64,000 nucleotides of DNA, taken from positions 64,001 through 128,000 of the forward strand of contig JAHLWR010000001.1 in assembly GCA_019057815.1 (NCBI GenBank), written 5' to 3'. The DNA is from Candidatus Heimdallarchaeota archaeon (lineage in GTDB: Archaea; Asgardarchaeota; Heimdallarchaeia; Heimdallarchaeales; Heimdallarchaeaceae). Position 1 is the stretch's first letter. Each line of letters opens with the position of its first letter. Positions 4,144 through 38,939 of this stretch are shown one piece after another. The notes under the pieces are model-generated. The model saw only the letters and a list, made by a program, of their open reading frames with translations, searched no databases and had not been told where the DNA came from. Position numbers and translations under genes: made by a program.

Positions 4144-6333
4144 ATGAAACTATCAAAAAAAACTGTGATTCTTACATTTTTTTGTATAGAATTAGCAAGT
4201 TTATTGGTAGTAAGTTGTTTTCTAGTTAACAACAATGATTTTTCTGACACTACAGAAGTTAATGCTCAAGAAGGCAATTTGACTGTTGAAGTGTCTCGCT
4301 ATCAAAAATATTTCAAAAACGACACTTTCTTAACAAATGGTTATCTCTATTGGGCAGAACTTGCAGGTGGAGAACTTTCTCTTTATGGAAATACTTCAGA
4401 TATGTTCTCGTACTCTTTCTGGGACGCTATTGGAAACTATTCTGAAGGTGAAAATTTCTACTTGGAGTCTGATAGGATTGTTGTCCATGTTAGAACTACA
4501 GAATTATATTATCAAATTCGTGGAAATTACTATCCAGACTATTTCCAAGACACAAACTTTGTAGTAATTTTTGACACATTCTGGGCTCAATTTAGCTATA
4601 TAAGCCCTGAAGGTGAAAGTGTTTACGCTCCAATAACCTATTACAACAAACAAATACTTCCGGAAGGGGCAGGGATTGTAAGTTATGCTCCTACAGATGG
4701 AGCAACTATCATAAGAGAGGGAAATGCCTTTGGTGTAGTATGGAATTATGTAGAAAGGGCTATGGATCCTTTTCATAAACCACTAACATATGAAATCACC
4801 TACAATTTCGACCCAATTTACCTCCAATTTACAGAACAAATGTATCAAAATCAGCAGCAACAACAAGAAATAGAGCAGAATAATAGTTTATTGAATTTAT
4901 TACAAACATATTTCAGAATAATTGCTTTCTTTGCAATAGCACTTAGCATTATAGCAGCACTTTTGGGTTATTTAAGGGCAAAAATGAAATTCAAGTCGCA
5001 ATTAAATAAAGCTAAAAATATGCCTAAGCGAATGCTGAAGGATATAGAAGGAGAAACAGAACCAGGTAGAAGAATCTCATCATTATTTAATGTTTTCATT
5101 TTGATTCTAATAATTTCCACTGTAATTCCTCAGACTGATAACTCATCAGCTCCTAGTATTGATATAGCTTACAATGAACAATTAGTTGAGTTAATGGGTT
5201 GCTCACTAATAGAAGAAACCTCTAGAAACATAAATTATCAAACAATTATAGATTTAGGGAAAGATGGTATTGCATATGAAACGGTAATTATGTCTATGCC
5301 GTACTCTGTCACGAATTATAGTATATGGGTTGATACAACTAATGTTATATCATTCAAAGCGTATAATAGTTTAGGCACGCCTGTTTCCTTCCAAGAATTT
5401 TCTGACCGATATCTGATTAATAATGTTCAAGGCTATATAGAATACGAAATTATCAAACCTTATGTTTATTATAATAACAGCGATATTCTTGTCTATCTCG
5501 ATTATTTCTGGCTATATTTTGTTGACCCTGATTTAGATCCAGAGCAAAGTAGTGATAATTATTCGAATGCTGACATTACTTTCACAGTAATCATACCAGA
5601 AGGAGCCATATTATACAGTGCCTCCCCTGAAAATTATTTGACCCTATCTGTTACTCCAGAAGGAAGAAAAAAAGTTACTTTTACTCACTATAATAGAGAA
5701 ATAGATCCCTATCATGATCCCTTCTCAACCCAAGTTACGTTCTCATTTTTCAACGTTATAGAAGCAATTGAGAATCAATCAGCAAGATTTGAACATTGGA
5801 GAGTGGAGACAGACTTAACTCAACAACAAGTAACCTCATTAACGCGTAATTTATTTTTCATAAGCTTGTTGGGGATAATAGCTCCTATTCTAGCTTTTCT
5901 CCTAACTTATTTCATCATGCGAACTAGGATGCTCAAGAAAATCCAAGAGGAAGAGCAGAAGTATGAGTTATTAATTTCAGTCGAAGAAAGTCAATTGATT
6001 GCACTTATAAAAGCTCAAGAAATAGATCTTACTAAGGAACCATGGAAAGCGATGTTAGGAGGGTATTGGGAACTTTTATCGTATTTAAGCCGCTTTACAC
6101 CGATTAACTTGATGGCTGCAAAAGAGGATTTACACGAAAAGACAATCAGAAAATACATTCCCTCATTCTTAATTAATGAAACTCTTGAACATCTCTCAGT
6201 TGGTCAAGGGATATCCAATAGTTGGTTAAAGGGAGAACAGTTGATATACAACCGACAGCAATCTCGTGATTACCTTGAAACAGTTAGTAAACTAACAGAA
6301 AAATTGGAAAAATGGAGGAAGGAAAAACCATGA
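4144..6333 (+). CDS. Membrane protein with two tandem homologous extracellular modules
   Basis: Signal-like N-terminus; duplicated motifs ILPEGAGIVSYAP..DPFH and IIPEGAILYSASP..DPYH, each followed by a coiled coil and a TM helix. Confidence 0.75.
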   Translation: MKLSKKTVILTFFCIELASLLVVSCFLVNNNDFSDTTEVNAQEGNLTVEVSRYQKYFKNDTFLTNGYLYWAELAGGELSLYGNTSDMFSYSFWDAIGNYSEGENFYLESDRIVVHVRTTELYYQIRGNYYPDYFQDTNFVVIFDTFWAQFSYISPEGESVYAPITYYNKQILPEGAGIVSYAPTDGATIIREGNAFGVVWNYVERAMDPFHKPLTYEITYNFDPIYLQFTEQMYQNQQQQQEIEQNNSLLNLLQTYFRIIAFFAIALSIIAALLGYLRAKMKFKSQLNKAKNMPKRMLKDIEGETEPGRRISSLFNVFILILIISTVIPQTDNSSAPSIDIAYNEQLVELMGCSLIEETSRNINYQTIIDLGKDGIAYETVIMSMPYSVTNYSIWVDTTNVISFKAYNSLGTPVSFQEFSDRYLINNVQGYIEYEIIKPYVYYNNSDILVYLDYFWLYFVDPDLDPEQSSDNYSNADITFTVIIPEGAILYSASPENYLTLSVTPEGRKKVTFTHYNREIDPYHDPFSTQVTFSFFNVIEAIENQSARFEHWRVETDLTQQQVTSLTRNLFFISLLGIIAPILAFLLTYFIMRTRMLKKIQEEEQKYELLISVEESQLIALIKAQEIDLTKEPWKAMLGGYWELLSYLSRFTPINLMAAKEDLHEKTIRKYIPSFLINETLEHLSVGQGISNSWLKGEQLIYNRQQSRDYLETVSKLTEKLEKWRKEKP

Positions 6334-7007
6334 AATTTTCAAAATTAATTATATCACTATTTGTATTAACCACTACTCTATCAACGTTATCAATACCTAT
6401 AGGAGTCTTAGGGGAAGAAACGGGTTATACTTCTCCACTTAATTTCTTTCAAATAGGAGGAGACACAAATTTCACAGCTTATGTGGTAGCACCTCTTTCT
6501 TGGGAACTCAATAAACCAGTTAACCTAACACTCTACATTAACGTTACAGTTTTGCCAGAGGGTTCAAACATGACAATAGTTAGTTTATCTTATAGTTACA
6601 ACTTACCTAACAGCCCCTATCCGATTTATCAAACACCCTCAACTCCAAATGAAATGATAACTGAAGCTAATCAACAAGTTGTTGATAGAAAAATTCTTCG
6701 TGCACCCTCTGATGTGGAAGAGTTCAATATAACAATAAAAATCATAGCTAATAGCTCTTCCTCCCCCGAAAATCAAGAATTTGAAATGGAATTTCCTGGT
6801 GATCTTCCATATATAGAAGTTGAAGATACGTCTGCAAATCCTATCATAAACCTACCAGGATTCCCTGAATCTAGAACATTTTGGAGATGGATTTTGATCT
6901 TTTTCGTAGCTATGATAATTATGACTTTACCGGCTTCATATGTTGCTTTCATGAAGATTCAGCAGAATTTGAAAAGTAGGAAGAAGAAAGGAGCGAAGAA
7001 AAAATGA
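6330..7007 (+). CDS. Single-pass surface protein (signal peptide, beta-rich domain, C-terminal TM, Lys-rich tail)
   Basis: MKFSKLIISLFV signal; ATGA overlap with the upstream stop; TM followed by KSRKKKGAKKK. Confidence 0.75.
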   Translation: MKFSKLIISLFVLTTTLSTLSIPIGVLGEETGYTSPLNFFQIGGDTNFTAYVVAPLSWELNKPVNLTLYINVTVLPEGSNMTIVSLSYSYNLPNSPYPIYQTPSTPNEMITEANQQVVDRKILRAPSDVEEFNITIKIIANSSSSPENQEFEMEFPGDLPYIEVEDTSANPIINLPGFPESRTFWRWILIFFVAMIIMTLPASYVAFMKIQQNLKSRKKKGAKKK

Positions 7008-8596
7008 GTGAGAAAGAAACAACTTCACCTTTAGAAAGAGGAACAAGAAAAATGGATGTTCTTATGCGTGCATTTGGTATGAGGACTAGAATCTTTAAGG
7101 GTTCATCTCGTTCTATTGTTAAAGGCACAAGGAAAATTTATCCCTATGAGCTAAATGCAACTGTTATTGAAACAGCAAGAGGTGTAGGTATTCGTATCCA
7201 ACTAGAAAAACTATGGTACACCTTTCTCAAGTTCATACCATTCTTACTACTAATAATTATATCACTTTTATCTTATTTTGTTCCTAGTATAGGAGACAAC
7301 ATTGCTAGTGTAACAGGAGTAAATCCCTTCAAACTAGTTTTAGGTTCAGAACCGGGTTTTATTGGATTATGGATTATACTCCCTATATTAGGTCTGATTT
7401 TTATTGGAGTTGAAATATTAGAAAGAATTATTCGAGCTAGATATATTCAAGACAGAATGCCAAGATTCCTTAGTGGTGCAGAGTGGGAAATAGCAGAACC
7501 TCCAATAGTTTTAGACACAGTATCTACTTCAAGTAATTTATTGTGGTTCATGTATGTAGTAATGATTTTAATTTTCGCGCCTTTATCCTTTTCAGATTGG
7601 GTTTACACAAAATTCCTAGAAGTATACAAGGTTGAATCATCAGCTATTTTCAACACAACAACCTTGATTTCTATTCTAGATATAGCTATTCTATCAGGAA
7701 TGATGTTCGCTATCCTTTACATGAATTATGAGAAATTTAGAGGAAGTTTAGACAGAAAACAGTTTAGATATGATGTAAGGGTGGAAAGCCAAGTAAGACA
7801 AATGATACAAATAGCTACTGGTACCACAATTCTGGCAACTTTTGAATTGGTTCTATTTTATTTCATGTTTTGGAATAATATTACTGTAATCCAAGTAATC
7901 ATTTTTTACGTTCTAACAGTTGCTGCAAGTGTTTTAGGAACGTGGCTTTTCTGGCAAAAAGAAAATTACATCTTCATTGCACTATCTATTTGGTTCTTCT
8001 TGAGTGATGTAGTAATGATTTTCCTCAATGCTAATGACCCTTCATATTCATGGATGATAATTTGTCATCTATTTCTAATTCTATTCATAGTTGGGATATC
8101 ATTAAACAGATATTTTGAAGGTTACCTCGCTAAAAAAGGAATGTATGAACCTAGCTGGATCTTCAACCCATTCCCATTTTTTGCCTTTGTTATACTCTTA
8201 AAGAAGAAGAAGGTAAGAATTACAAAAAGTGTTGATAAAGAACTTGAGGAGATTAGAGATGAGGAAATGGTAACACGAGTTCGAGAGAGAGAACCTTTAA
8301 CCATAGATATAGATAAGATAAAGAAGAAGGGTAAGGGAGCTGATAAAATTATCCAATATTATCAAAAAATTCTTTCACGAATAGTTACTGGGGAGTTTAG
8401 TATTTTATCTATTACCACATTAAATTCTCAAATCTTGGAGTTTTTACGAGAAAAGAAAGAGTTAGTACCTCAAACTAAGGAGCTATTCATTGTAATAGAC
8501 AAATTATTGTGGGAAGACAATTACAAATTACAAAATGGAAGTAAGTATGTAAAAATCGCGGAACAAATGTATGAAATCGTCATTAAGATGAGGTGA
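7004..8596 (+). CDS. Polytopic membrane protein with soluble helical C-terminal domain
   Basis: About 10 hydrophobic segments; ATGA overlap. Confidence 0.75.
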   Translation: MSEKETTSPLERGTRKMDVLMRAFGMRTRIFKGSSRSIVKGTRKIYPYELNATVIETARGVGIRIQLEKLWYTFLKFIPFLLLIIISLLSYFVPSIGDNIASVTGVNPFKLVLGSEPGFIGLWIILPILGLIFIGVEILERIIRARYIQDRMPRFLSGAEWEIAEPPIVLDTVSTSSNLLWFMYVVMILIFAPLSFSDWVYTKFLEVYKVESSAIFNTTTLISILDIAILSGMMFAILYMNYEKFRGSLDRKQFRYDVRVESQVRQMIQIATGTTILATFELVLFYFMFWNNITVIQVIIFYVLTVAASVLGTWLFWQKENYIFIALSIWFFLSDVVMIFLNANDPSYSWMIICHLFLILFIVGISLNRYFEGYLAKKGMYEPSWIFNPFPFFAFVILLKKKKVRITKSVDKELEEIRDEEMVTRVREREPLTIDIDKIKKKGKGADKIIQYYQKILSRIVTGEFSILSITTLNSQILEFLREKKELVPQTKELFIVIDKLLWEDNYKLQNGSKYVKIAEQMYEIVIKMR

Positions 8597-27050: not shown

Positions 27051-28301
27051 TCAAAATAGACCAATATCTTTTCTATGAAACAGTTTTCCTTTGATTTTTG
27101 GAATATCTGCCATGACACTCTCACGTGCATCTTGTAATGTCGTTCCTGTTCCAACCACTGCGATAGCTCTACTCTTTGTGGTTAATATTTGATTATCACG
27201 TCTGTATACTGATGCATAATATAAATCATAATTTTGTGAATCTTTAACTTCAATAAATTGATTTTCCAATGGTTTAGTGGGATATCCTTCAGGAACCAAG
27301 TACACACATGAAGTAGCTAAAGGAGAGAATGCTACATTTTTCAAGTTTTGATCAATCATACTCAAACATACACTGTTAAAACCTGTTTCTTGAATTTTTA
27401 AAACATTTAATGCCTCAGGATCACCAAATCTAGCATTAAACTCTACTAAGAAAATCCCATTGTCTGTCTTCATAAATTGTCCATACAAGACTCCTATATA
27501 TGAAAAACCAGTCTTTTTATGAATTATTTCAACAACTTTCTTCATAATTTTGAGTGCTGAAACTGTATCCGCACTGGACAAATATGACAAAGAATGTGAT
27601 GGTAAGGAATATGAACCCATACTTCCAGTATTTGCTCCTTTATCACCATCAAATGCTCTTTTATAATCTTTAACAAGTGGCATTGGAATCAAAGTTTTTC
27701 CATCAGTATAGGTTTGAAGAGAAAATTCTTTTCCCATCAGTTTTTCTTCAATTATAAACTGTGATTGTTGCTTTTGAAGGATTTCAACGTAATCTTTAGC
27801 TTGATCATAATTTGAAAAATGATCACCATATACTCTCACTCCTTTCCCACCTGTCAGACCATCAGGTTTAATCGCTATCTCTATTCCAAACTCTTTTATC
27901 GCATTTTTAAAATCATCTAGTGAGCTACAAATCCTGTATTTTGGATTACCTGGAAGGTTATTTTCGTCTAGTAACTTTCTCGCATAAATTTTACTTGATT
28001 CGATTTGAGATACGACCTTTCTAGGACTACAGGTTGGTATATCTAGTTTCTCCTCAAGATAATCTGCTATACCCTCTGCTAAAGGTTGTTCAGGTCCAAC
28101 TATAGCATAGTCTACTGATTTAAAATTGTCCAACTTTTTGAAATCGTTCAAATTACCTATCAAGAACTTTTGCGATAAATCAGCAATTCCTGGATTTTCT
28201 TTTGACATATAAGAGAATAAGATACCATTATCTTCTACAATTTTTTTGGCTATTGCATGTTCCCTTGCCCCATTTCCAACAAGTAATACTTTGTAAGACA
28301 T
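27051..28301 (-). CDS. purD: Phosphoribosylamine-glycine ligase
   Basis: VGNGAREHAI, VGPEQPL, GLTGGKGV, GANTGSMG, EFNARFGDPE. Confidence 0.95.
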   Translation of the reverse strand: MSYKVLLVGNGAREHAIAKKIVEDNGILFSYMSKENPGIADLSQKFLIGNLNDFKKLDNFKSVDYAIVGPEQPLAEGIADYLEEKLDIPTCSPRKVVSQIESSKIYARKLLDENNLPGNPKYRICSSLDDFKNAIKEFGIEIAIKPDGLTGGKGVRVYGDHFSNYDQAKDYVEILQKQQSQFIIEEKLMGKEFSLQTYTDGKTLIPMPLVKDYKRAFDGDKGANTGSMGSYSLPSHSLSYLSSADTVSALKIMKKVVEIIHKKTGFSYIGVLYGQFMKTDNGIFLVEFNARFGDPEALNVLKIQETGFNSVCLSMIDQNLKNVAFSPLATSCVYLVPEGYPTKPLENQFIEVKDSQNYDLYYASVYRRDNQILTTKSRAIAVVGTGTTLQDARESVMADIPKIKGKLFHRKDIGLF

Positions 28302-28304
28302 TTC

Positions 28305-29702
28305 TTATCCCTCTTCATAATGGCTTCTATTTATTATTTCACCATTCAAATACTTGATCCGAAGCTCCGCAGCGAATTGTGTAGGATAACTTCCAGATAA
28401 ACATGCTGTGCATAAATCATTAATCCCAATTGATTTTTTTAGCGATTCTATTTTTTGATAATATAAATTATCGACATCTAATATTTCCTTGATTTGCTTC
28501 AAAGTATTTCCAGAAGCTATTACTTCTTCATCAGATGGGAAATCAATTCCATAGTAACATGCAAAACGTATAGCTGGACATGTAATAGCGAAGTGAATTT
28601 GATCTACACCTAAAGAGCGTAAATCGCGTATTATTTTCTGACTAGTTAGTCCCCTTACTATTGAATCATCAACAAGTAGAATCTTCTTTCCTTTAATGTA
28701 TGAAGGTATATAGAGGTACTTTCTTTTTGCGGCGTTTGTTCTCTCTTTTTCGCTCTTCATGATAAAAGTTCTTTGTAAATATCGGTTTTTTATAATTGCT
28801 TCCCTAACAGGTATGTTCAACTCCTCAGAAAGACCTTGAGTAGCTGGTCTAGATGTGTCAGGGACTGGGATAATATAATCTATCTCAATATCATCTTGTT
28901 GGATTCTATGGGAGAGTTCCCTACCAAGTGATAACCTGATATCATATACCAATTGTTTCTCAATAACTGAACATGGGTTTGCAAAGTAAACATATTCAAA
29001 CATGCAGTGAGCGTGATCAGCATTGCAAAGTTGAGCTCGTTCAAGTGAATTTTCTGAAAAAATAATTAGCTCTCCTGGTTTAACATCATCAAATTCCGTT
29101 ATACCCATATTCTGGAGAACCACACTCTCTGAAGCAATTACAGTTAGAGAACCATTTTTCCCTATCACAAGAGGACGAATCCCTTTAGGATCTCTGAAAG
29201 TGAACAAGGTTTTTCCAAGTAATCCAATAATTGAATAGCTCCCATCAATGCTATCTATAAAATCTTTAACGGATAATTTGATATCTCCTTTGTTTCTATC
29301 AAGTAGATCCCCTAGAAAATCTGCAATAAAATTGGCATCACTTTCATACTTCCTTGAGGTTAGTTGAGAGAGATTGGTTGTATTGCCATTATGAACAATA
29401 ACTAAAGTGCCATATTTACTTTTCACGGAAAAAGGTTGAGCGAAATTATCAACATTCGTGAAATTAGTTCTAGTCCCAAAAGTAGGGTACCTGGTAGAAC
29501 CTAAGAGAAAAATAGCTTTTTCATCTTCACTAACTTTCAATAAATCAGGATAAGCATCAATCTTACTAATAGATAATTTGTTGTCATTTTCTGAAATCCA
29601 AGCTAAGCCACTTGCATCTTGTCCTCTATGAGTTAACATTTGGAGTAGAATTTTACCTTGCTCAAGCGTTGTTTCACCTTTAACTCCTAGAACACCACAC
29701 AT
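28305..29702 (-). CDS. purF: Amidophosphoribosyltransferase (4Fe-4S type, no propeptide)
   Basis: MCG N-terminal Cys, HRGQD, CMFEYVYF, VDDSIVRG, CYYG, CTAC. Confidence 0.95.
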   Translation of the reverse strand: MCGVLGVKGETTLEQGKILLQMLTHRGQDASGLAWISENDNKLSISKIDAYPDLLKVSEDEKAIFLLGSTRYPTFGTRTNFTNVDNFAQPFSVKSKYGTLVIVHNGNTTNLSQLTSRKYESDANFIADFLGDLLDRNKGDIKLSVKDFIDSIDGSYSIIGLLGKTLFTFRDPKGIRPLVIGKNGSLTVIASESVVLQNMGITEFDDVKPGELIIFSENSLERAQLCNADHAHCMFEYVYFANPCSVIEKQLVYDIRLSLGRELSHRIQQDDIEIDYIIPVPDTSRPATQGLSEELNIPVREAIIKNRYLQRTFIMKSEKERTNAAKRKYLYIPSYIKGKKILLVDDSIVRGLTSQKIIRDLRSLGVDQIHFAITCPAIRFACYYGIDFPSDEEVIASGNTLKQIKEILDVDNLYYQKIESLKKSIGINDLCTACLSGSYPTQFAAELRIKYLNGEIINRSHYEEG

Positions 29703-29704
29703 TA

Positions 29705-30310
29705 TTATTCCTCAACAATTATTTTTCGTTCTTTTATGCTTATTTTACCTTCAGAAATCAGTTTTAATGCAAGGGGTAATATCTCATGTTCGTGTTTTAG
29801 AATTTTCTGAGATAAAGATTCCTCTGTATCGTCGTTACTAATTTCTACCGCTCTCTGTAGTATTATAGGACCATAATCCACTTCCTCACTTGCAAAATGG
29901 ACAGTACATCCAGAGATTTTGGATCCATGATTGAGAGCTTGTTTTTGTGCTTTTAAACCTGGAAAAGCGGGAAGGAGAGAAGGATGAATGTTTACAATTC
30001 TATTAATGAATGTATTTACAAAGAAAGGAGTAAGGATTCTCATAAATCCAGCTAATACTATGAGATCGATATCATGTTTGTGCAATACTTTTACCAATTG
30101 ATTATCATATTCTTCTCTGGAATTATAGGAATTTGATTCAAGAATGATAGCTTTTTTATTATATTCCTTAGAATATTTCAAACCTTCAGCATCTCGTTTA
30201 TCTGAAATAATAAGACTAACTATTGCTTTACCAAGAGAACCTTTTCGTTCAGATTCCAGTATAGATTTAAGGTTTGAGCCTCTTCCTGATATTAATACTG
30301 CTAGTCTCAT
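29705..30310 (-). CDS. purN: Phosphoribosylglycinamide formyltransferase (folate-dependent)
   Basis: ISGRGSNL, LAGFMRIL, NIHPSLLP, GCTVH, DYGPII. Confidence 0.95.
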   Translation of the reverse strand: MRLAVLISGRGSNLKSILESERKGSLGKAIVSLIISDKRDAEGLKYSKEYNKKAIILESNSYNSREEYDNQLVKVLHKHDIDLIVLAGFMRILTPFFVNTFINRIVNIHPSLLPAFPGLKAQKQALNHGSKISGCTVHFASEEVDYGPIILQRAVEISNDDTEESLSQKILKHEHEILPLALKLISEGKISIKERKIIVEE

Positions 30311-30314
30311 TAAA

Positions 30315-32666
30315 TCACCGAGTTAGTTGTACATCATAATCAGGAATTTTCACTATTGGTTCTTCAATTATTTGTCCTAAAATGTGAGAATCAAAATACT
30401 TGTTTAAATGATAAAGAACTTTCTCTCTTTCTTCTTCAGGAACAACAACTACAAAACCTATTCCCATATTAAATGTAGAAAACATCTCATCGTAGGAAAT
30501 TTTTCCCAATTTTTGAATCTCTTCGAAAATTTTTGAAGGCCTTGGAAAATGTTTCAAAAGAAACCCGTTCTCTGTCAATCTGAATAATTTGGAGAAACCT
30601 CCTCCAGTAATATGAGCTAAGCCACGTACATCGTAATTATCAATAAGAGATTCTATGACTTCAGAATAGATTCGCGTTGGTGTTAGTAATTCATCACTTA
30701 GTTTTTTTTGTCCATCAAATACATCATCTAACTGATAATTACTTAGTAGAACTTTACGGGCTAATGTATAGCCGTTTGAATGTATCCCACTACTTGATAT
30801 CCCAAGTACAACATCTCCCACTTTTATATTCGAACCATCAATAAGTTTGTTTAAATGAACCATACCTAGAGCTGTCCCTACTAGGTCGAAAGGTTTCCCT
30901 GAACCCTTAAGCATTTCAGGAACAGTAGCTAATTCACCACCTATTAAAGGAGTAGAAGCGATTTCACATCCTTTATACAAACCTTTCATAATTTCTTCAA
31001 TCATATCAGCATTTAACTCTGCAACTGCCAAATAGTCCACAAAAGCCTTAGGAACTATTCCCATCGCTAGTAAATCATTTACATTCATAGCGACGCAATC
31101 AATTCCAATAGTGTCAAACTTGTTGACTTTCTGTGCAACAAGTAATTTTGTTCCTACACCATCTGTTACAAGAGCTAAACCTTGATCACCATACTTTATC
31201 AAGTTGGCATAATGACCTTCTCTTCCAACAACATCTCCAAACTCAAAAGTGTTCTTAACATGTTCATTTATTATTTTCAACACTTTGGATTCTAATTTTA
31301 AATCAACACCAGCTTCAGAATAGGAAGAAGGGATTTTTTCTTCATCTTTTTTTTCATCTTTTTCATCTTTTTCATCTTTTAGAGAATTAACAAATTCCTC
31401 TACAATTTTTGAAGCTATACCAACATAGTTCATTGGTTCAAGGATAGAATCAATTTCATCTTCTGAAAAGAATTCCCTGACAGTTTCATTATCTTTTGTT
31501 GCTTGCATAAAATTATCCTGATTAGACAATTGTTTCAAAAGATCATGTGCTTTTTGTCTTCCCATCTTATCACTTAATCTAATCATCAAATGTTCAGAGC
31601 ATTGAGCTCCATTCCTTAAATAGAGGTTTTTCTTAATTTTTTCTTCATTAAACTGAAGAGAACTGAGAACTTGATTCATCTGTAATAGAATATAATGAGT
31701 TAAAATGGAAGTTTCAGCTAAAATCAACCTTTCAGAGCTTGAATTCGTGAGATCTCTTTCATGTTCTAAACACACATTATCAAATGAAACTTGAACAGCA
31801 GAACGAATGTTTCGAGCTAAGCCAGATATTCTCTCACTTTTTTCAGGATTACGTTTTTGTGGCATTGTTGAAGAACCAACTTGAGCCTTGTCGAAAGATT
31901 CTCTGATTTCATCAATCTCCGTTCTCTGTAGATTTCTTATTTCTCTAGCAAAATGATCTAATACTGTGGCAATTAAACCTAAAGCGTAAACATACTTCGA
32001 ATATATAACACGAGATACTACTTGTGTTGTTAGGGGTTGTTTTTTCAATTCTAACTTTTCTAGAACGATTTTCTCAATTTCATCGGTTCCGTATGAAGCA
32101 TAAGTTCCTACAGCTCCAGAGATTTTCCCATAAGCGACATTTGTATTTATTAATAATTCTTTAACTAAAATTAACTCATTCAAGAAATTACCTATCTTCA
32201 TTCCATATGTTGTAGGGATAGCATGTTGTCCATGAGTTCGTCCAATACATACAAGATCTTTGTATTTTAAAGCTAAATCTGAAGCAATTTTGATTGTTTC
32301 ATTCAGAGTTTCTAAAATGATGTTTCTTGCATCCTTTAGCTGTAAACCTCTAACTGTATCTTGAATATCATAAGAAGTGGCTCCCAAATGAATATAACCT
32401 CCATATTCTCCACATTGCTCAGCTATAGCTTTAACAACACTCATTAAATCGTGATGAATTTCTTTTTCAATTTCCTGCGCTCTTTCCAACATTACATCGG
32501 TTGTATTGCATTTTGAATTAATAATTTCAAAGGCTTCCTTTGGTATTTTACCAACTGAATAATTTGCTTCTGCAAGTACTTTTTCAACTAATAATTGGAG
32601 TTCAAACTTTCTTTTTGTAGAAAAAACCTCGTTTAACGAGGTTTTATATCTTTCACTTTCTAGCAT
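30315..32666 (-). CDS. purB-purM: Fused adenylosuccinate lyase (N-terminal) and AIR synthetase (C-terminal)
   Basis: PurB: [25 protein letters not shown]; linker [12 protein letters not shown]; PurM: [35 protein letters not shown]; one uninterrupted ORF. Confidence 0.93.
31341..31379. repeat. 9-bp tandem repeat TTCATCTTT x4 encoding the KDE linker of PurB-PurM
   Basis: Copies at 31341, 31353, 31362 and 31371. Confidence 0.85.
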
Positions 32667-33045
32667 TTTTCACACCTAAGATTCGAAGAGCTAAATAAGC
32701 CGCATTTTGCCCATTATCTATTCCGACAGTTGCCACAGGGACGCCTTTAGGCATTTGAACTATTGATAACAAAGCATCTAAACCATTAAGGGCAACAGAG
32801 ACAGGGACCCCAATGACAGGACGTTCAGTTATTGCAGCAACAACACCCGGAAGAGCAGCAGCTAGTCCAGCTATACATATAAAAATATCCGCTTTTGAGT
32901 TCTTTACTTTATCCACAAGTTTTTCATGTTCTCTATGAGCTGATATATAATTAATTTCAAAAAAAACATTATTTTCCTCTAGAACCTTTGCAACTTTATC
33001 AACTATATGAGAGTCACTCTTACTTCCTGCTATTATATCAATCAT
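32653..33045 (-). CDS. purE: AIR carboxylase / N5-CAIR mutase, short form (130 aa)
   Basis: [35 protein letters not shown]. Confidence 0.93.
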
Positions 33046-33047
33046 AT

Positions 33048-35228
33048 TTATTCCTCCATAAATTTAGGGATAGCATTTCTCCAATTATCATACAATTCTT
33101 GGATACAGAGAGAAATACTATCGTTAATTTCTATTCGAGTTTTTTCTGTAACAATACCCACAATTCCATAATCTGTTTTAAGTTCTTGAAGAACTTTTTC
33201 TGTTTCACACAAATTTTCAGAAGACACTTCAATCAAGTATCTGGCTGGCGATTCAGTGAAAAGATATTCTTCCATAGATAATTTGGTTTTTGAGGGAATT
33301 GAAGAAGTAGTTAACTTTACACCTAATTTGTTTTGAAAGGTCATTTCGATTGATGACACCACTAACCCACCATTTGATATATCGTGACAGCTTTCTATTA
33401 AATTAATCTTATTCAAATTAATAATTGCTTCAATCGAGTTATTTTCTTTCTTAAAATCATATTTGGGTATTGGTCCCGTTACTATTCCATGATTATATCG
33501 AAGATATTCAGAACCACCCAATAAGCCTTCAGTGCTACCTATTACTATTATATGGTTTCCGGTTTTTTGAAAGCTATTTTGTAATAATAAACTCTCGTTC
33601 TCAATAATTCCTAACATACCTATCGTAGGAGTAGGATTAATTCTTTCTCTTTTCTCATTGTGAACACTTTCGTTGTAAAATGAGACATTTCCACCAATAA
33701 TAGGGATTTGAAAATCATGAGAAAATTGACCTAAACCTTTTACAGATTCGACAAATTGCCAATAAGAATCAGGCTGCTCAGGGTTACCATAATTAAGACA
33801 ATCTACTAATGCATAGGGAGTTGCACCCATAGTTATAAGATTCCTCATTACCTCTGCAGCGGAGTTGGCAGTGCCGTTGAATGGATCTATATAAACCATG
33901 AAAGAATTACAATCTAATGAAAGAGCAATGTGTTTTCCATTGTCTAGTCTAATGACAGCAGCATCAGATCCAGCACCTTTTACAGTTTGTGTCTGAACAT
34001 GTTGATCATATTGTTGGTACACCCAGGATTTGTCACCGATATTTGGGGAGGTTAGTAGTTTAGATATTTCGGAACTTATATTCTCCGAAAGAGGTAAATT
34101 GATTTTGGAGTTTTTACCTATATAATCTGGTTTTACTGATTTCCTTTCTGGTTCAGGACATCCATTTACAACTAAATCAACAGGAAGGTCACTAACTTTG
34201 TTTCCATTATAATATGTAATAAAATGACTATTATCTGTCACTTCACCTATAATAGCGTGAAGAAGATCAAATCTATCTAAAATATATTGCACCCTATCAA
34301 CATTGTTTGGAGAAACAACTGCTAACATTCGCTCTTGAGATTCAGAAACTAGTATCTCCCATGATTCCATCTCTTTTTCTCTAAGAGGTACATCTTCAAC
34401 TCTTATTATTGCGCCTGTGTTACCCTTTTCAGTCATTTCTGAAACTGCACAACTTAATCCTCCCCCACCTAAATCTTGAAGTCCATCTAGTAGACCTTCT
34501 TCTACTAATTCAAGAGTTGCATCTATAACCACCTTTTCCATCAAAGGGTCTCCAATTTGTACAGCAGGTCGATCTTTATCACTTTTATCTGATAAATCCT
34601 TTGAAGCAAAGGAAACGCCATGGATTCCATCTTTCCCTGTTCTTGCACCATATAAAATTAGGAAACTTCCTGGTTTTGAAGCAATGCTTCTAACAACTTT
34701 TTCTTTTTCAATCAGACCTACACACATTACATTAACTAAACAATTACTCTCATAAGCTGTACTGAATTCAACTTCTCCACCTACTGTAGGAATCCCGCAA
34801 CAATTCCCATAGAAAGAAATTCCTCTAACCACATTTTCGAATAGATTTCTTGAGTGATGAGAATCTAAATCTCCAAATCTGATAGAATCTAGTAGAGCTA
34901 TTGGTTTACAACCTTGAGATAGAATATCTCTTATAATTCCCCCAACACCTGTTGCAGCTCCATCAAATGGACTTATAGCTGATGGATGGTTATGACTCTC
35001 GAGTCCCAAACCAATTAGTAAACCGTCACCGATATCGACAAGTCCAGCTCCTTCACCTATTCCTAAAAAGAGATATGGTGCTTTGATATTAAATAGATGA
35101 AACCAGCGTTTAGAGGATTTGTATGAGCAATGTTCACTCCACATTGCTTCCAGAATCGCTAATTCAGCTTTATTAGGTTCTCTGCCAATTGTCATCAATA
35201 CTTTTCCATACTCTTCTGGTGTTAGCAT
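33048..35228 (-). CDS. purL: FGAM synthase, small PurL subunit
   Basis: [52 protein letters not shown]. Confidence 0.96.
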
Positions 35229-35911
35229 TTTAATTCCTCGATTAAATTTTCGAAAATTGAACGTCCATCAATTGAACCTAAATAGTGGAAACTCGATCTT
35301 TCAGGATGAGGCATCATTCCTAGAACATTTCCCTTATCATTCACAATTCCTGCAATATTTGCAATAGAACCGTTTGGGTTACTCATAGACTCAACTACTT
35401 TTTTTTCATTACAGTACTGGAAAGCAATTTGAGAATTATCTTTTAATTGTTTGATTGATGCTTCAGTATTGTAATAATTACCCTCATAATGAGCAATAGG
35501 AATTCGCAGAACCTTTGATTCTAACCCTTTGAGGAGAGGAGAATTAGTTTTATTTACTTTAATATTAACCCATTTTGAGATAAATCTTGTTGAAGTGTTT
35601 GTAGTAAGAACACCTGGTAGATAATTAGCTTCACATAACATCTGAAAGCCATTACAAATACCAAGAACGAACTTTTCAGAAATTATAAAATCGTGAAGTT
35701 CATCAATTAGACTTGTTCTTGCAGCTACTACTCCGGCACGTAAATAATCACCATAAGAGAATCCACCAGCAAGAATCAAAGCATCAAAATCTTTCAGCTT
35801 CCTATAATCTCTTGGATATAATAACTCATTTTCGACATTAAGACAATTTAAAACACGTGTAACATCTTGTTCATTATTTGTTCCTGGAAACTTAGTAATG
35901 CCTATTTTCAT
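35222..35911 (-). CDS. purQ: FGAM synthase glutaminase subunit
   Basis: FPGTN, GGFSYGDYLRAG, GICNGFQ, NPNGS, MMPHPER. Confidence 0.95.
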   Translation of the reverse strand: MKIGITKFPGTNNEQDVTRVLNCLNVENELLYPRDYRKLKDFDALILAGGFSYGDYLRAGVVAARTSLIDELHDFIISEKFVLGICNGFQMLCEANYLPGVLTTNTSTRFISKWVNIKVNKTNSPLLKGLESKVLRIPIAHYEGNYYNTEASIKQLKDNSQIAFQYCNEKKVVESMSNPNGSIANIAGIVNDKGNVLGMMPHPERSSFHYLGSIDGRSIFENLIEELKC

Positions 35912-35915
35912 TTTA

Positions 35916-36884
35916 TTATCTCTCCTCTTCAAACCACAAATCTATGGAATAATCTTCAATTAACGGATTCGAGAAGAGTTTTTCGCTCATATCATTTAAA
36001 TTCTTTAATAATTCGGAAGAAGGAGCAGTTAGGCAGTTAACAAAAACATGTTTTCCCAATCTTACATTATCTATTTCTTGATAATTCATCCTATTTAATG
36101 ACCTTAGAGTTACTTCACCTGCAGGATCTAATACAGTTTTTTTCAGCTTGACAATAACCTGAGCCTTTGTTGATAAAGATAATTCAGGTAACTTTGACAA
36201 TTTGGATAATTTGTCGTAGACATCATTATAATGTTGAATAACATCACCCATGTCTTTTCGATAACGATCTTTATCTTTTACTTCACCAGTTTCTTTATCC
36301 CACAACCGCATGGAATCCCCAGAAATTTCATCGGCAACAATAATCCTCCCATCATGAGTTCTCCCAAATTCTAGTTTAAAATCAACAAGTTGGAGTGAAA
36401 TCATATCAAAGAGTTCAACCAATATAGTGTTTACGGCCCTTGTTACTGCTTTCATAAGCATCACCTCTTTTTTGGTCATCCATTCAAGTTGTATAGCAAC
36501 TTCTTGAGTAACTAGAGGATCATATAACTCATCATCTTTGTAGAAGAACTCAATGACTGGTGGTAAAAGCTCCAGTCCTTGTGTTACTCCATATCTTCTA
36601 CAAAAACTACCAGCAGTAACATTTCTACAAACGACTTCAACTGGAATTATCTCAACTTTATCGCATATTAGCGTGTTATTATCTAGCATGGAATGATAAT
36701 GAGTACGAATGCCATATTCGTTAAGAATCTCAAAAAGCTTTGCTGACATTCTACAATTAGCTTCTCCTTTTCCTTGTATAATATCTTTTTTTTCTCCATC
36801 AAAAGCAGAAATAGAATCGCGAAAAATTAGCTTGACTTTGTTATTTTCATAAATCTTAACATCTTTTGCTTTTCCAGAATACAT
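35916..36884 (-). CDS. purC-purS: Fused SAICAR synthetase (N-terminal) and PurS (C-terminal); start probably 36884
   Basis: PurC: YSGKAK, IPVEVVCRN, DFKLEFG, ADEISGDSMRLWD, DKDRYR; PurS: VKLKKTVLDPAG, VRLGK, SNPLIEDY. Confidence 0.92.
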   Translation of the reverse strand: MYSGKAKDVKIYENNKVKLIFRDSISAFDGEKKDIIQGKGEANCRMSAKLFEILNEYGIRTHYHSMLDNNTLICDKVEIIPVEVVCRNVTAGSFCRRYGVTQGLELLPPVIEFFYKDDELYDPLVTQEVAIQLEWMTKKEVMLMKAVTRAVNTILVELFDMISLQLVDFKLEFGRTHDGRIIVADEISGDSMRLWDKETGEVKDKDRYRKDMGDVIQHYNDVYDKLSKLSKLPELSLSTKAQVIVKLKKTVLDPAGEVTLRSLNRMNYQEIDNVRLGKHVFVNCLTAPSSELLKNLNDMSEKLFSNPLIEDYSIDLWFEEER

Positions 36885-36900
36885 TATAGCGCATAACCTC

Positions 36901-36918: not shown

Positions 36919-37043
36919 TTCGTGTTAAGTTTACTCTGACCAATTGAAATAAGTTTAATTAATAAAGTTTGCGAAAACAAACATAAGAAAAGGTGTGTTC
37001 AACTCAAGAAGATTTAAAAACAATTGCTCTTTATTCCGCTTAG

Positions 37044-37077
37044 CGAAATAGTTTGCAGTGTAATGCAAATGGTTTCG
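37044..37077. promoter_or_regulatory. 34-bp imperfect palindrome CGAAA-N3-TTTGCA-N6-TGCAAA-N3-TTTCG, candidate PurR-like operator
   Basis: Read directly from the intergenic region between the pur operon and the divergent HTH-PRTase gene. Confidence 0.65.
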
Positions 37078-37214
37078 TTTTATTTTTGATTCATTAGCGA
37101 AAAATAGTGATAGAAAAAGCATCAAGAAAGCATTATCATAGTTACTTAACTTTTCATTGAAAGAATGATGTTGTGACATACCAAAATTTTTTACTTAAGC
37201 TTCATAATGAATAT

Positions 37215-37982
37215 ATGATGACTGTAGACAGCTATGTTGATTCCCAAGAAAAGTTAATGACAATTAATCTTTTACAAATAGCATTCAAACGCTTTGAAAC
37301 TTTAGAGAATTTAAAAAATTACCTTTTGAAAAAAGGTGTTGAGGTTTCGATAGCGAACTTATCTCGGTATATAAATGGTAAAGCCTTACCAAAATCGAAG
37401 TTAAAAGAAAAACTTCTAAATGTGCTAATTCAAAATAAAGACTTAGGCTTAACAATTCAAACATTAATTAACAAACGCATTACAATTATATCAAATAACT
37501 CTGAAAATATTTCTGTTAATAATAGCCATTTGTTAAATGATTCAAAGATTCTTACTACAATATTGTTTATAGCATTACGCAAAGGAATCATAAGCAGAGA
37601 TGTTGATAAAGTTATCACGGCTGAAGTAGATGGAATTCCCATTGGTATGATTTTAGGGCAACTCTTGAATGTTGATTGCGTTTATGCAAGGAAGAAAAAA
37701 CTTGTAGGAACAACAAAAGTTCATTATGAAGATGTACAATCACATGGTTCAGGGAGGATGGATACGCTATACTTACCGGATAAATTCATCAGAAATGGTG
37801 AAAAAGTGATAATAGTCGATGATGTTATACGCTCAGGATCAACACAAAGAGCGTTAATAAGCTTGGTAAGAAGATCAGGAGGAAACCCAAGCCAGATAAT
37901 AACATTGATAGGAATTGGTGACCATTGGAAAGAGATTACAACACTTGATTCGATACCATTTAAATCATTAATAATTCTTTGA
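37215..37982 (+). CDS. HTH + type I PRTase-domain regulator (PurR-like architecture)
   Basis: N-terminal HTH (SIANLSRYING); PRTase motifs TAEVDGIP, ARK, IVDDVIRSGST; divergent from the pur operon. Confidence 0.8.
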   Translation: MMTVDSYVDSQEKLMTINLLQIAFKRFETLENLKNYLLKKGVEVSIANLSRYINGKALPKSKLKEKLLNVLIQNKDLGLTIQTLINKRITIISNNSENISVNNSHLLNDSKILTTILFIALRKGIISRDVDKVITAEVDGIPIGMILGQLLNVDCVYARKKKLVGTTKVHYEDVQSHGSGRMDTLYLPDKFIRNGEKVIIVDDVIRSGSTQRALISLVRRSGGNPSQIITLIGIGDHWKEITTLDSIPFKSLIIL

Positions 37983-38039: not shown

Positions 38040-38939
38040 ATGCCATATGATAGGATGACAAATAACTTGCACCAGAGTGTTTTTGCGTTAATTATTGGGG
38101 CAGGATTTAGTTCACTGTTAATCGCATTTTTTGGAGTAGAATCGCTGATTTTTGCAATTCTTGAAGTTCCTTTAGCATTCTTAATAGCTTTAATAACTAT
38201 AACAGAGTGTATCTATTCGTACAATGAAGAGGTCTCAATGCAAACAACGTTCAATATGGTTGGACCTTTATTAAAGTCGATTTTAATCTCAATTCCTGTC
38301 GTTCTGATGTACTCTGCTATTATCTTAATATTAGATAAAACCGTCACCAAATTTCATGATGCAATACAACCTCTTTTTGATCAGACAATTCAAAGTTTAG
38401 GTCCAATAGCAGCTATCCCTATCATATGCTTTTTACCCGTTCTACTGATGAATTTCGCTATGCCTTTGTTTCTATATTTCTATGGAAGCGTCCACGTCTT
38501 ATTCTGGGGAAGAAAAGCAAGATCTGATAAAAAAAGAGCGAAAGATGAACTAGCAGGCGATGTAAAGGAAAAAGAGTATCAAGATAAAGTAGATGAAGTC
38601 ATCGCTAAATTTGAAGATGATGCAACAAAATTGCACCAATACCTTCTAGAATTACAAGCTTTTGATTCACTAATCGAACAAATAGAAGATCATGTATCAT
38701 ACAAAGGGATGGCAAGTAGACTAGTAATGATGAAAGATTATGTCATTTCTCTAGCAGAAGTCCCTGAAGAAAAAATATACAAAACAATTATAAAAGAAGA
38801 TGAAGTTAAAGAGAAAGCTGAAGCGGTAGAGATGCAAAGCAAGACAGTTATAGACATCGTTGAGAAAAATATGAAGAAATTAATAGATGAAAAGGGACAA
38901 TTTGAGAAAGAACCAGAAGAAGAAAGCGAAGAATATTAG
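38040..38939 (+). CDS. Membrane protein with C-terminal charged coiled coil
   Basis: About four N-terminal TM segments followed by an E/K-rich helical region. Confidence 0.7.
   Translation: MPYDRMTNNLHQSVFALIIGAGFSSLLIAFFGVESLIFAILEVPLAFLIALITITECIYSYNEEVSMQTTFNMVGPLLKSILISIPVVLMYSAIILILDKTVTKFHDAIQPLFDQTIQSLGPIAAIPIICFLPVLLMNFAMPLFLYFYGSVHVLFWGRKARSDKKRAKDELAGDVKEKEYQDKVDEVIAKFEDDATKLHQYLLELQAFDSLIEQIEDHVSYKGMASRLVMMKDYVISLAEVPEEKIYKTIIKEDEVKEKAEAVEMQSKTVIDIVEKNMKKLIDEKGQFEKEPEEESEEY

Follow-up and report, generated by a model that had tools for sequence, protein, structure and literature searches.

The locus considered here raises the question of whether an archaeal operon, in which enzymes of non-consecutive steps of purine synthesis have been joined into single proteins, encodes a genetically fixed multi-enzyme assembly or records the merging of genes that were already neighbours. 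It lies in a window of 64,000 nucleotides (nt), the whole stretch of DNA that was analysed, from contig JAHLWR010000001.1 of a Candidatus Heimdallarchaeota archaeon (genome G000; 3.74 Mb, 48 contigs, 95.4% complete), and it contains two fusion genes, viz. purC-purS and purB-purM. The reading that best accounts for our results, to which we assign a probability of about 0.78, is that these are two bifunctional genes that arose by fusion of adjacent genes, that each provides for 1:1 expression of its two parts, and that their products likely form small closed oligomers.

Both fusion genes belong to a set of eight co-oriented genes on the minus strand (36884..27051), viz. purC-purS, purQ, purL, purE, purB-purM, purN, purF, and purD, which together cover steps 1–8 of de novo purine synthesis and in which all neighbours overlap or are separated by gaps of 4 nt or less (Table 1). 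The coordinates, the gene order and the numbering of the fused steps (7+4 for PurC-PurS and 8+5 for PurB-PurM) given in an initial annotation of this DNA agree with the listing of open reading frames (ORFs) and the Pfam matches. The purC-purS gene likely starts at its ATG at 36884, upstream of which stands a GAGGT motif, the ORF being extendable to a TTG at 36980, and the start of purB-purM overlaps the 3' end of purE by 14 nt. A scan for promoters and terminators based on a sigma-70 model, which is ill-suited to archaea, reported 46 promoter-like sites against 43.2 expected and no terminator-like sites on the minus strand.

Known structures and family models correspond to the separate halves of the two proteins. 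The PurC half, a SAICAR synthetase, is matched by PDB chain 2yzl_A (5.4e-67 over residues 1–227) and the PurM half, an AIR synthetase, most closely by 9jzy_A (9e-93 over residues 448–780), while the Pfam scores of the PurB half, an adenylosuccinate lyase, are 8.1e-43 for Lyase_1 and 1.5e-10 for ADSL_C. The PurS half belongs to its family both by score, which is above the cut-off, and by context, with purQ and a purL of 726 amino acids (aa) directly downstream. No chain in a PDB sequence search spans either junction, the 13 matches to PurC-PurS each covering residues 1–240 or 240–320 and the 47 matches to PurB-PurM each covering residues 5–428 or 444–780, and no NCBIfam model covers either of the fused forms. 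The Ser-rich loop that is a conserved signature of the fumarase/ASL superfamily is present in the PurB half, where residues S265, S266, M268, P269, K271, R272, N273, and P274 are invariant among 23 fused proteins, and in the same alignment the motif residues of both halves of PurB-PurM are invariant.

Each fusion is also the only source of its activities that was found in the genome of this host: PurB-PurM is its sole match to PurB or PurM, PurC-PurS is its sole match to the PurC-PurS query, and no match to PurS other than the fused one was found. Ratios of nonsynonymous to synonymous substitution rates (dN/dS) were 0.14 and 0.13 for PurB and 0.17 and 0.09 for PurM in comparisons with G011 and G014, respectively, and 0.17 for PurC and 0.38 for PurS in comparison with G013, dS being near saturation in distant pairs. 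With purifying selection acting on sole copies, both halves of both proteins should be active, catalytically or structurally, and the PurB half, as the only PurB found, must also act in the branch leading to adenosine monophosphate (AMP).

Both fusions are genuine and are not artefacts of assembly. In run X4, a 2017 subsurface metagenome from another study, a Logan contig of 29,401 nt covers positions 30300–36900 with 285 substitutions, crosses both junctions and keeps both frames intact; the sole indel listed for it is an absence of 21 nt at 31336, which is in frame and falls within the PurB-PurM linker. A 206-nt contig from run X3 has the same 21-nt gap (31336/31337). In run X1, the probable source, the contigs match the window without a difference, end inside the linker repeat (31351–31379) and provide no independent support. 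Of 400 Asgard species genomes, 9 contain stop-free, full-length PurB-PurM frames, two of these (G014 and G015, from the family of the host) being single-contig, and the same fusion occurs in roughly 20 clusters of proteins drawn from NCBI, JGI, ENA, and Logan; with PurC-PurS as query, 118 of the 120 best matches are fused. The fusions are thus real and conserved, and the artefact alternative that had been named in the initial annotation is not borne out by the independent contig that crosses both junctions.

Relatives of the host in which the genes are still separate indicate how the purB-purM gene could have arisen. Two genomes of the same family (G012 and G013) have an identical gene order with purB and purM unfused, and in these the stop of purB and the start of purM share 8 nt of an A-rich tract. 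Compared with these genomes, the linker of the window (residues 426–447) consists of the PurB tail and the PurM N-terminal tail of the relatives with a run of Lys, Asp, and Glu between them (residues 430–444), which is encoded by a 9-nt repeat. The repeat program TRF identified 3.4 copies of this 9-nt unit with 100% matches (31350–31380) and 2.5 copies of a 12-nt unit (31335–31364). The linker is 7 residues shorter in proteins P0003 and P0004, and the length of the repeat is strain-variable by this 7-codon difference; among fused PurB-PurM proteins in general, linker lengths lie between about 4 and about 45 residues.

These comparisons indicate that each fusion represents the merging of adjacent, translationally coupled genes inside a compact eight-gene operon. 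The join of purB to purM would be due to a small frame change within the 8-nt stop/start overlap, which placed the two genes in one frame, and the linker would be the old PurB C-terminal tail and PurM N-terminal tail, lengthened by slippage of the 9-nt repeat. A frame change in the overlap together with repeat slippage is, on the sequences compared, sufficient to account for the whole PurB-PurM junction. A locus from Micrarchaeota (L042, 2950–5360), in which purB and purM are adjacent with overlapping frames (4287–4314), resembles the unfused relatives of the window. Since both fusions join genes that are already adjacent in G012 and G013, the initial description of this operon as rewired is an overstatement.

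The PurB-PurM fusion is rare, scattered and younger than PurC-PurS. The nine genomes that carry it (G000, which is the window's own, and G011, G014, G015, G042, G043, G046, G078, and G079) span four GTDB families of one class, and an exhaustive HMMER search of 1.84 billion representatives found the architecture in 3 of the best 150 matches (P0019, P0244, and P0254), P0244 and P0254 being the two most distant PurB-PurM representatives. The nearest protein matches carry Heimdall-group Asgard names, one of them being labelled Ca. Heimdallarchaeum endolithica, and the ESM Atlas gave no usable match to PurB-PurM. When contigs were scanned with the alignment of fused proteins, at least 5 of the 80 loci kept, among the matches listed, matched both halves, and the four of these that were checked (L023, L026, L031, and L042) each consist of two separate ORFs; no Heimdall records were among the matches listed, and the scan leaves the range of the fusion unchanged in either direction.

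Genera g1 and g4 have the fusion and genera g2 and g3 lack it, the operons being otherwise identical. On a PurB tree the fused state requires at least 5 changes, 3 of which are forced by well-supported branches, the tree being unrooted and gains therefore indistinguishable from losses. Placing all 21 fused rows in a single clade was rejected by the approximately unbiased (AU) test (log-likelihood 441 lower, p-AU 1e-7), and a single clade of the six fused rows from Heimdallarchaeaceae was compatible with the data (p 0.50), both groups having been named after the tree was viewed.

PurC-PurS is the older fusion and is lineage-restricted rather than phylum-wide. Among the 150 PurS matches listed for the 400 genomes, 37 lie in frames of at least 320 aa, 112 lie in frames of 82–128 aa and the remaining one is ambiguous; another 109 matches lie beyond these 150, and 151 of the 400 genomes have no PurS match. 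The PurC-PurS frames among the matches listed belong to the order of the window (families f1–f4) and to family f31, and the fusion is found also in bacteria, mainly in Bacillota and Actinomycetota, as indicated by clusters in the ESM Atlas. An Asgard-wide distribution, which the 118 fused proteins among the 120 best matches might have suggested, is rejected by the 112 listed PurS matches in short frames.

The partner of PurM differs between lineages. In 32 genomes of family f31, the operon reads purC-purS, purQ, purL, and purE-purM, with purB located elsewhere, and a full-length, uninterrupted PurE-PurM is present in all of these and in G108, G109, and G051, the names of its sources including Thorarchaeota, Sifarchaeia, Hodarchaeota, and Promethearchaeota. 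Family f4 is mixed, with PurE-PurM in G051 and PurB-PurM in G046, and in genus g5, which belongs to the family of the window, purE and purM are separate and purB lies outside the operon. PurE-PurM replaces PurB-PurM where purE stands directly upstream of purM, and the partner of PurM appears to depend on its upstream neighbour, which is PurB here and PurE in f31 and others. Genome G108 combines PurE-PurM with a 982-aa PurS-PurS-PurL (L019, 9547–12492), whose N-terminal part includes two stretches of PurS as well as the FGAR-AT linker, and with a 300-aa PurC that lacks PurS; the proposition that PurM fusions occur only where PurC and PurS are fused is rejected by this genome. The simplest reading of this variety would be that compact, overlapping pur operons repeatedly fuse adjacent genes and that PurM tolerates N-terminal additions. 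The observations fit opportunistic fusion of neighbours at least as well as they fit selection for one specific cross-step assembly.

Several other arrangements of these genes were observed. In the public collections, proteins P0335, P0294, and P0256 comprise PurB-PurA (855 aa, with a Bacilli cluster of 62 members), PurB-PurC (690 aa) and AIRS-AIRS-PurN (882 aa) fusions. Family f20, the largest Asgard family sampled, has purB followed directly by a divergent AIRS-family gene (L013, 4900–7464; also L015, L016, L023, L026, and L031), the two frames being split by a single stop codon in L013 and L023. This gene is 27–31% identical to PurM, with a Pfam AIRS score of 29.8 bits, and a typical PurM at an E-value of 1e-60 or better was found in none of the 135 genomes of f20; the AIRS-family gene may be the only PurM there, or it may be a paralogue.

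No PurS domain was found in a Pfam scan of the 726-aa PurL of the window, and since the fused PurS is the sole one detected, the PurS half must serve the synthetase of formylglycinamidine ribonucleotide (FGAM), the enzyme of step 4. A small PurL needs PurS, and by way of this fusion a dimer of PurC should come to sit on the PurS dimer in the complex of PurL, PurQ, and PurS. A stoichiometry of 2:1:1 for PurS:PurL:PurQ is stated in one source (PMC10912719), and this ratio would fit a PurC dimer seated on the FGAM synthetase. The tethering of PurC to this complex, which had been suggested at the outset, is a reasonable and sound deduction from the small PurL, the sole PurS and the reported ratio.

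The most likely consequence of fusion is fixed 1:1 expression and co-localisation of the joined activities in small closed oligomers, an outcome that would be akin to the multifunctional purine enzymes of eukaryotes rather than to an obligatory channelling machine. The eukaryotic GART is dimeric and PAICS is octameric, and by analogy closed particles are more likely than polymers for a fusion that joins PurM, a dimer, to PurB, an enzyme known as a homotetramer with shared active sites. Some considerations weigh against the reading of adjacent-gene fusion with modest structural consequences. The fusions of PurM recur and persist with very short linkers in some lineages, which could reflect positive selection instead of neutral drift, and the fused activities form neat pairs, in that steps 4 and 7 yield the substrates of steps 5 and 8, which a purely neutral model does not predict. 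Additionally, the preference for closed over open assemblies is drawn from eukaryotic precedents, any kinetic benefit of fusion would be an extrapolation, and the expression of each fusion as one polypeptide is predicted here from the genes.

Of the alternatives to adjacent-gene fusion with small closed products, the one that survives best holds that (PurC-PurS)/PurL/PurQ, acting in steps 4 and 7, and PurB-PurM, acting in steps 5 and 8, bind one another, with or without PurE, as a metabolon, which is the hard-wired purinosome of the initial annotation. Such an assembly would be large or polymeric, with the fusion of a tetramer to a dimer as a multivalent scaffold, and would channel FGAM, aminoimidazole ribonucleotide (AIR), its carboxylated form (CAIR), and succinylaminoimidazole carboxamide ribonucleotide (SAICAR). 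Pathway logic lends it some appeal, in that the FGAM and SAICAR released by the first complex would be the substrates of PurB-PurM; in addition, every lineage with PurB-PurM that was checked (f1, f3, f4, and f6) has at least one member with PurC-PurS, and f31 combines PurC-PurS with PurE-PurM. Passages of two sources (PMC10912719; PMC12583656) report that purine enzymes of bacteria interact weakly in networks and that PurL had been proposed earlier as a scaffold, although the same passages describe the earlier Escherichia coli interaction maps as holding no data on PurL partners and a later two-hybrid screen as placing PurL among the interactants and not as a scaffold.

The genomic evidence speaks against an obligatory assembly of this kind. 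PurM is unfused in the same operon of the close relatives G012 and G013 and in genus g5, the fused state is labile on the PurB tree, where the 21-row clade is rejected, the two types of fusion are not strictly linked in view of G108 with its PurS on PurL, and the wide range of linker lengths argues against a single conserved geometry. Hence, we consider the metabolon unlikely. There is a similarly small chance of a two-part shuttle, in which a (PurC-PurS)2-PurL-PurQ complex would contact PurB-PurM, with PurE between them, and pass the intermediates to and fro through steps 4–8. Whether a purine metabolon exists in prokaryotes at all is treated as an open question in section 4.2 of PMC10912719. 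If the shuttle existed here, it would constitute a purine metabolon that is fixed genetically and that evolved, in the archaeal group closest to eukaryotes, independently of the eukaryotic purinosome, and f31 would have a counterpart of it made up of PurC-PurS and PurE-PurM.

A less probable alternative accepts the continuous frame and proposes that separate enzymes are still made, through an internal start of PurM or cleavage of the charged linker, so that fusion has no structural consequence. The linker is of low complexity, variable in length and probably disordered, and the unfused ancestor had a start codon at this position, all of which would suit this proposal. However, no in-frame ATG, GTG, or TTG occurs between residues 426 and 461, the first being the GTG of V462; a start there would remove Y449 and G453, both of which are nearly invariant among the fused proteins, and in several lineages there is almost no linker to cleave. 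We therefore regard separate products as quite improbable. The weakest alternative, that the fusions are assembly or sequencing artefacts such as a homopolymer indel in an A-rich junction, can point to the A-rich tandem repeat at the purB-purM junction where the X1 contigs in Logan end, but is hardly tenable given the independent contig with only a 21-nt in-frame difference, the stop-free frames in nine species genomes, the PurB-PurM clusters in four collections and the prevalence of fused PurC-PurS among its best matches.

The remainder of the genome and the genes adjoining the operon provide information on the purine pathway of this host. No PurH domain was found in a search of G000, and two PurP-type matches are present on other contigs, so that step 9 is probably formate-dependent. 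No PurK above the cut-off was found in the genome (best score 32.6 against 318.4 bits), and PurE probably works without a recognisable PurK; the coordinates recorded with these searches are C3:6341-6712, C44:12105-12449, and C24:25708-26304. Upstream of purC-purS, a divergently oriented 269-aa gene matches PRK08558 with 150.5 bits, which is below the cut-off of 184, and the PurR of Bacillus subtilis with 54 bits, making it a candidate regulator of the pur operon.

Table 1. Coordinates and supporting matches of the purine operon, its fusion proteins, the flanking ORFs and the PurE-PurM loci of other Asgard genomes
Feature	Position	Strand	Details
purC-purS fusion gene	35916..36884	-	322 aa from ATG 36884; Pfam SAICAR_synt 1.4e-71 and PurS 3.2e-19
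PurC half	residues 1-227 = 36204-36884	-	NCBIfam TIGR00081, 216.3 bits (cut-off 189.9)
PurC-PurS linker (short)	residues 228-239 = 36168-36203	-	
PurS half	residues 240-322 = 35919-36167	-	TIGR00302, 61 bits (cut-off 39); PF02700, 69.3 bits (cut-off 22.2)
purQ, glutaminase subunit of FGAM synthetase	35222..35932	-	Pfam GATase_5 3.3e-47
purL, small form, FGAM synthetase, step 4	33048..35228	-	726 aa; Pfam FGAR-AT_linker, 2 AIRS, 2 AIRS_C
purE, step 6	32653..33045	-	130 aa; Pfam AIRC 4.4e-47; TIGR01162, 150.7 bits (cut-off 149.6)
purB-purM fusion gene	30315..32666	-	783 aa; Pfam Lyase_1 and ADSL_C, then AIRS and AIRS_C
PurB half	residues 1-425 = 31392-32666	-	TIGR00928, 418.2 bits (cut-off 326.2), residues 5-426
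PurB-PurM linker	residues 426-447 = 31326-31391	-	
Tandem repeat encoding the Lys-Asp-Glu-rich linker run	31335..31380	-	TRF
PurM half	residues 448-783 = 30318-31325	-	TIGR00878, 355.6 bits (cut-off 236.35), residues 448-768
purN, step 3	29705..30310	-	Pfam Formyl_trans_N 2.3e-56
purF, step 1	28305..29702	-	Pfam GATase_7/GATase_6 and Pribosyltran
purD, step 2	27051..28301	-	Pfam GARS_N, GARS_A, GARS_C
74-aa intergenic ORF	36955-37179	-	no Pfam match
269-aa divergent gene	37173-37982	+	phosphoribosyltransferase domain with N-terminal extension of about 100 aa
299-aa ORF	38040-38939	+	no Pfam or NCBIfam match
PurE-PurM, L020 (G312)	6289-7740		PurE-PurM proteins of about 476-515 aa
PurE-PurM, L021 (G051)	5189-6733		as above
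PurE-PurM, L019 (G108)	5839-7266		as above

The significance of the locus lies in what it reveals of the birth of a bifunctional enzyme, for which the stages would be an 8-nt overlap, a linker and growth of that linker by repeat slippage. Fusion of adjacent genes of a pathway is common in itself, and it is the clarity of its origin that is unusual here, with fused and unfused forms found side by side in one family. The genera g1 and g4 on the one hand and g2 and g3 on the other provide matched natural constructs for the effect of linking non-consecutive steps on flux and assembly. The fused proteins are recorded in databases as 'adenylosuccinate lyase', 'SAICAR synthase', in a few cases 'PurS', or 'Multifunctional fusion protein', and because of the single-function names, purM and purS can appear to be absent in metabolic reconstructions of Asgard archaea. 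A literature search of papers found no description of a PurB-PurM, PurC-PurS, or PurE-PurM fusion; a survey of archaeal purine synthesis from 2011, which is older than the Asgard genomes, lists fusions of other kinds (PMC3261824).

Among known systems, the fusions of eukaryotes are the most familiar. GART and yeast Ade5,7 have the architectures PurD-PurM-PurN and PurD-PurM, respectively, and PurB-PurM resembles them in that PurM is preceded, on its N-terminal side, by an enzyme that acts at a non-adjacent step of the pathway. It differs in that the partner is PurB (step 8) and not PurD, purD and purN being separate genes in the window, and in its origin from overlapping genes of an archaeal operon. 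Similarly, PurC-PurS and the animal PAICS (PurC-PurE) both link PurC covalently to another component of purine synthesis, whereas the partner in the window is PurS, a subunit of the step 4 enzyme without catalytic function, and purE is a separate gene; of the two halves, only PurC is matched by PDB chain 2h31 ('Multifunctional protein ADE2'). The domain compositions PurD-PurM(-PurN) and PurC-PurE are absent from the window, where purD, purN, and purE are separate ORFs by Pfam, and the observation made initially that neither fusion corresponds to a eukaryotic one holds.

Closer counterparts of PurC-PurS are found in bacteria, where ESM Atlas clusters (one named 'Multifunctional fusion protein', mostly of Bacillota, with 77 members, another of Actinomycetota with 63 members and 400 aa) have SAICAR_synt and PurS in 97–100% of their members and a length similar to the 322 aa of the protein of the window. 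These belong to another domain of life and may be of independent origin. The large PurL and the 'mdPurL' of methanogens, in which PurL carries a PurS-like domain as described by Brown et al. (2011; PMC3261824), likewise represent the loss of a free PurS subunit by fusion to a purine protein, and the PurS-PurS-PurL of G108 is like mdPurL. The PurS of the window differs from these in being carried by PurC, an enzyme that does not bind it directly, and a second enzyme would thereby enter the complex.

The system nearest to PurB-PurM is the PurE-PurM of other Asgard archaea (about 477 aa), which occupies the same operon position, has the same PurM N-terminus and co-occurs with PurC-PurS in f31. 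It differs from PurB-PurM in joining the consecutive steps 6 and 5 and in the absence of purB from the operon, and it is much the commoner of the two, being present in 32 genomes of f31 against nine genomes overall for PurB-PurM.

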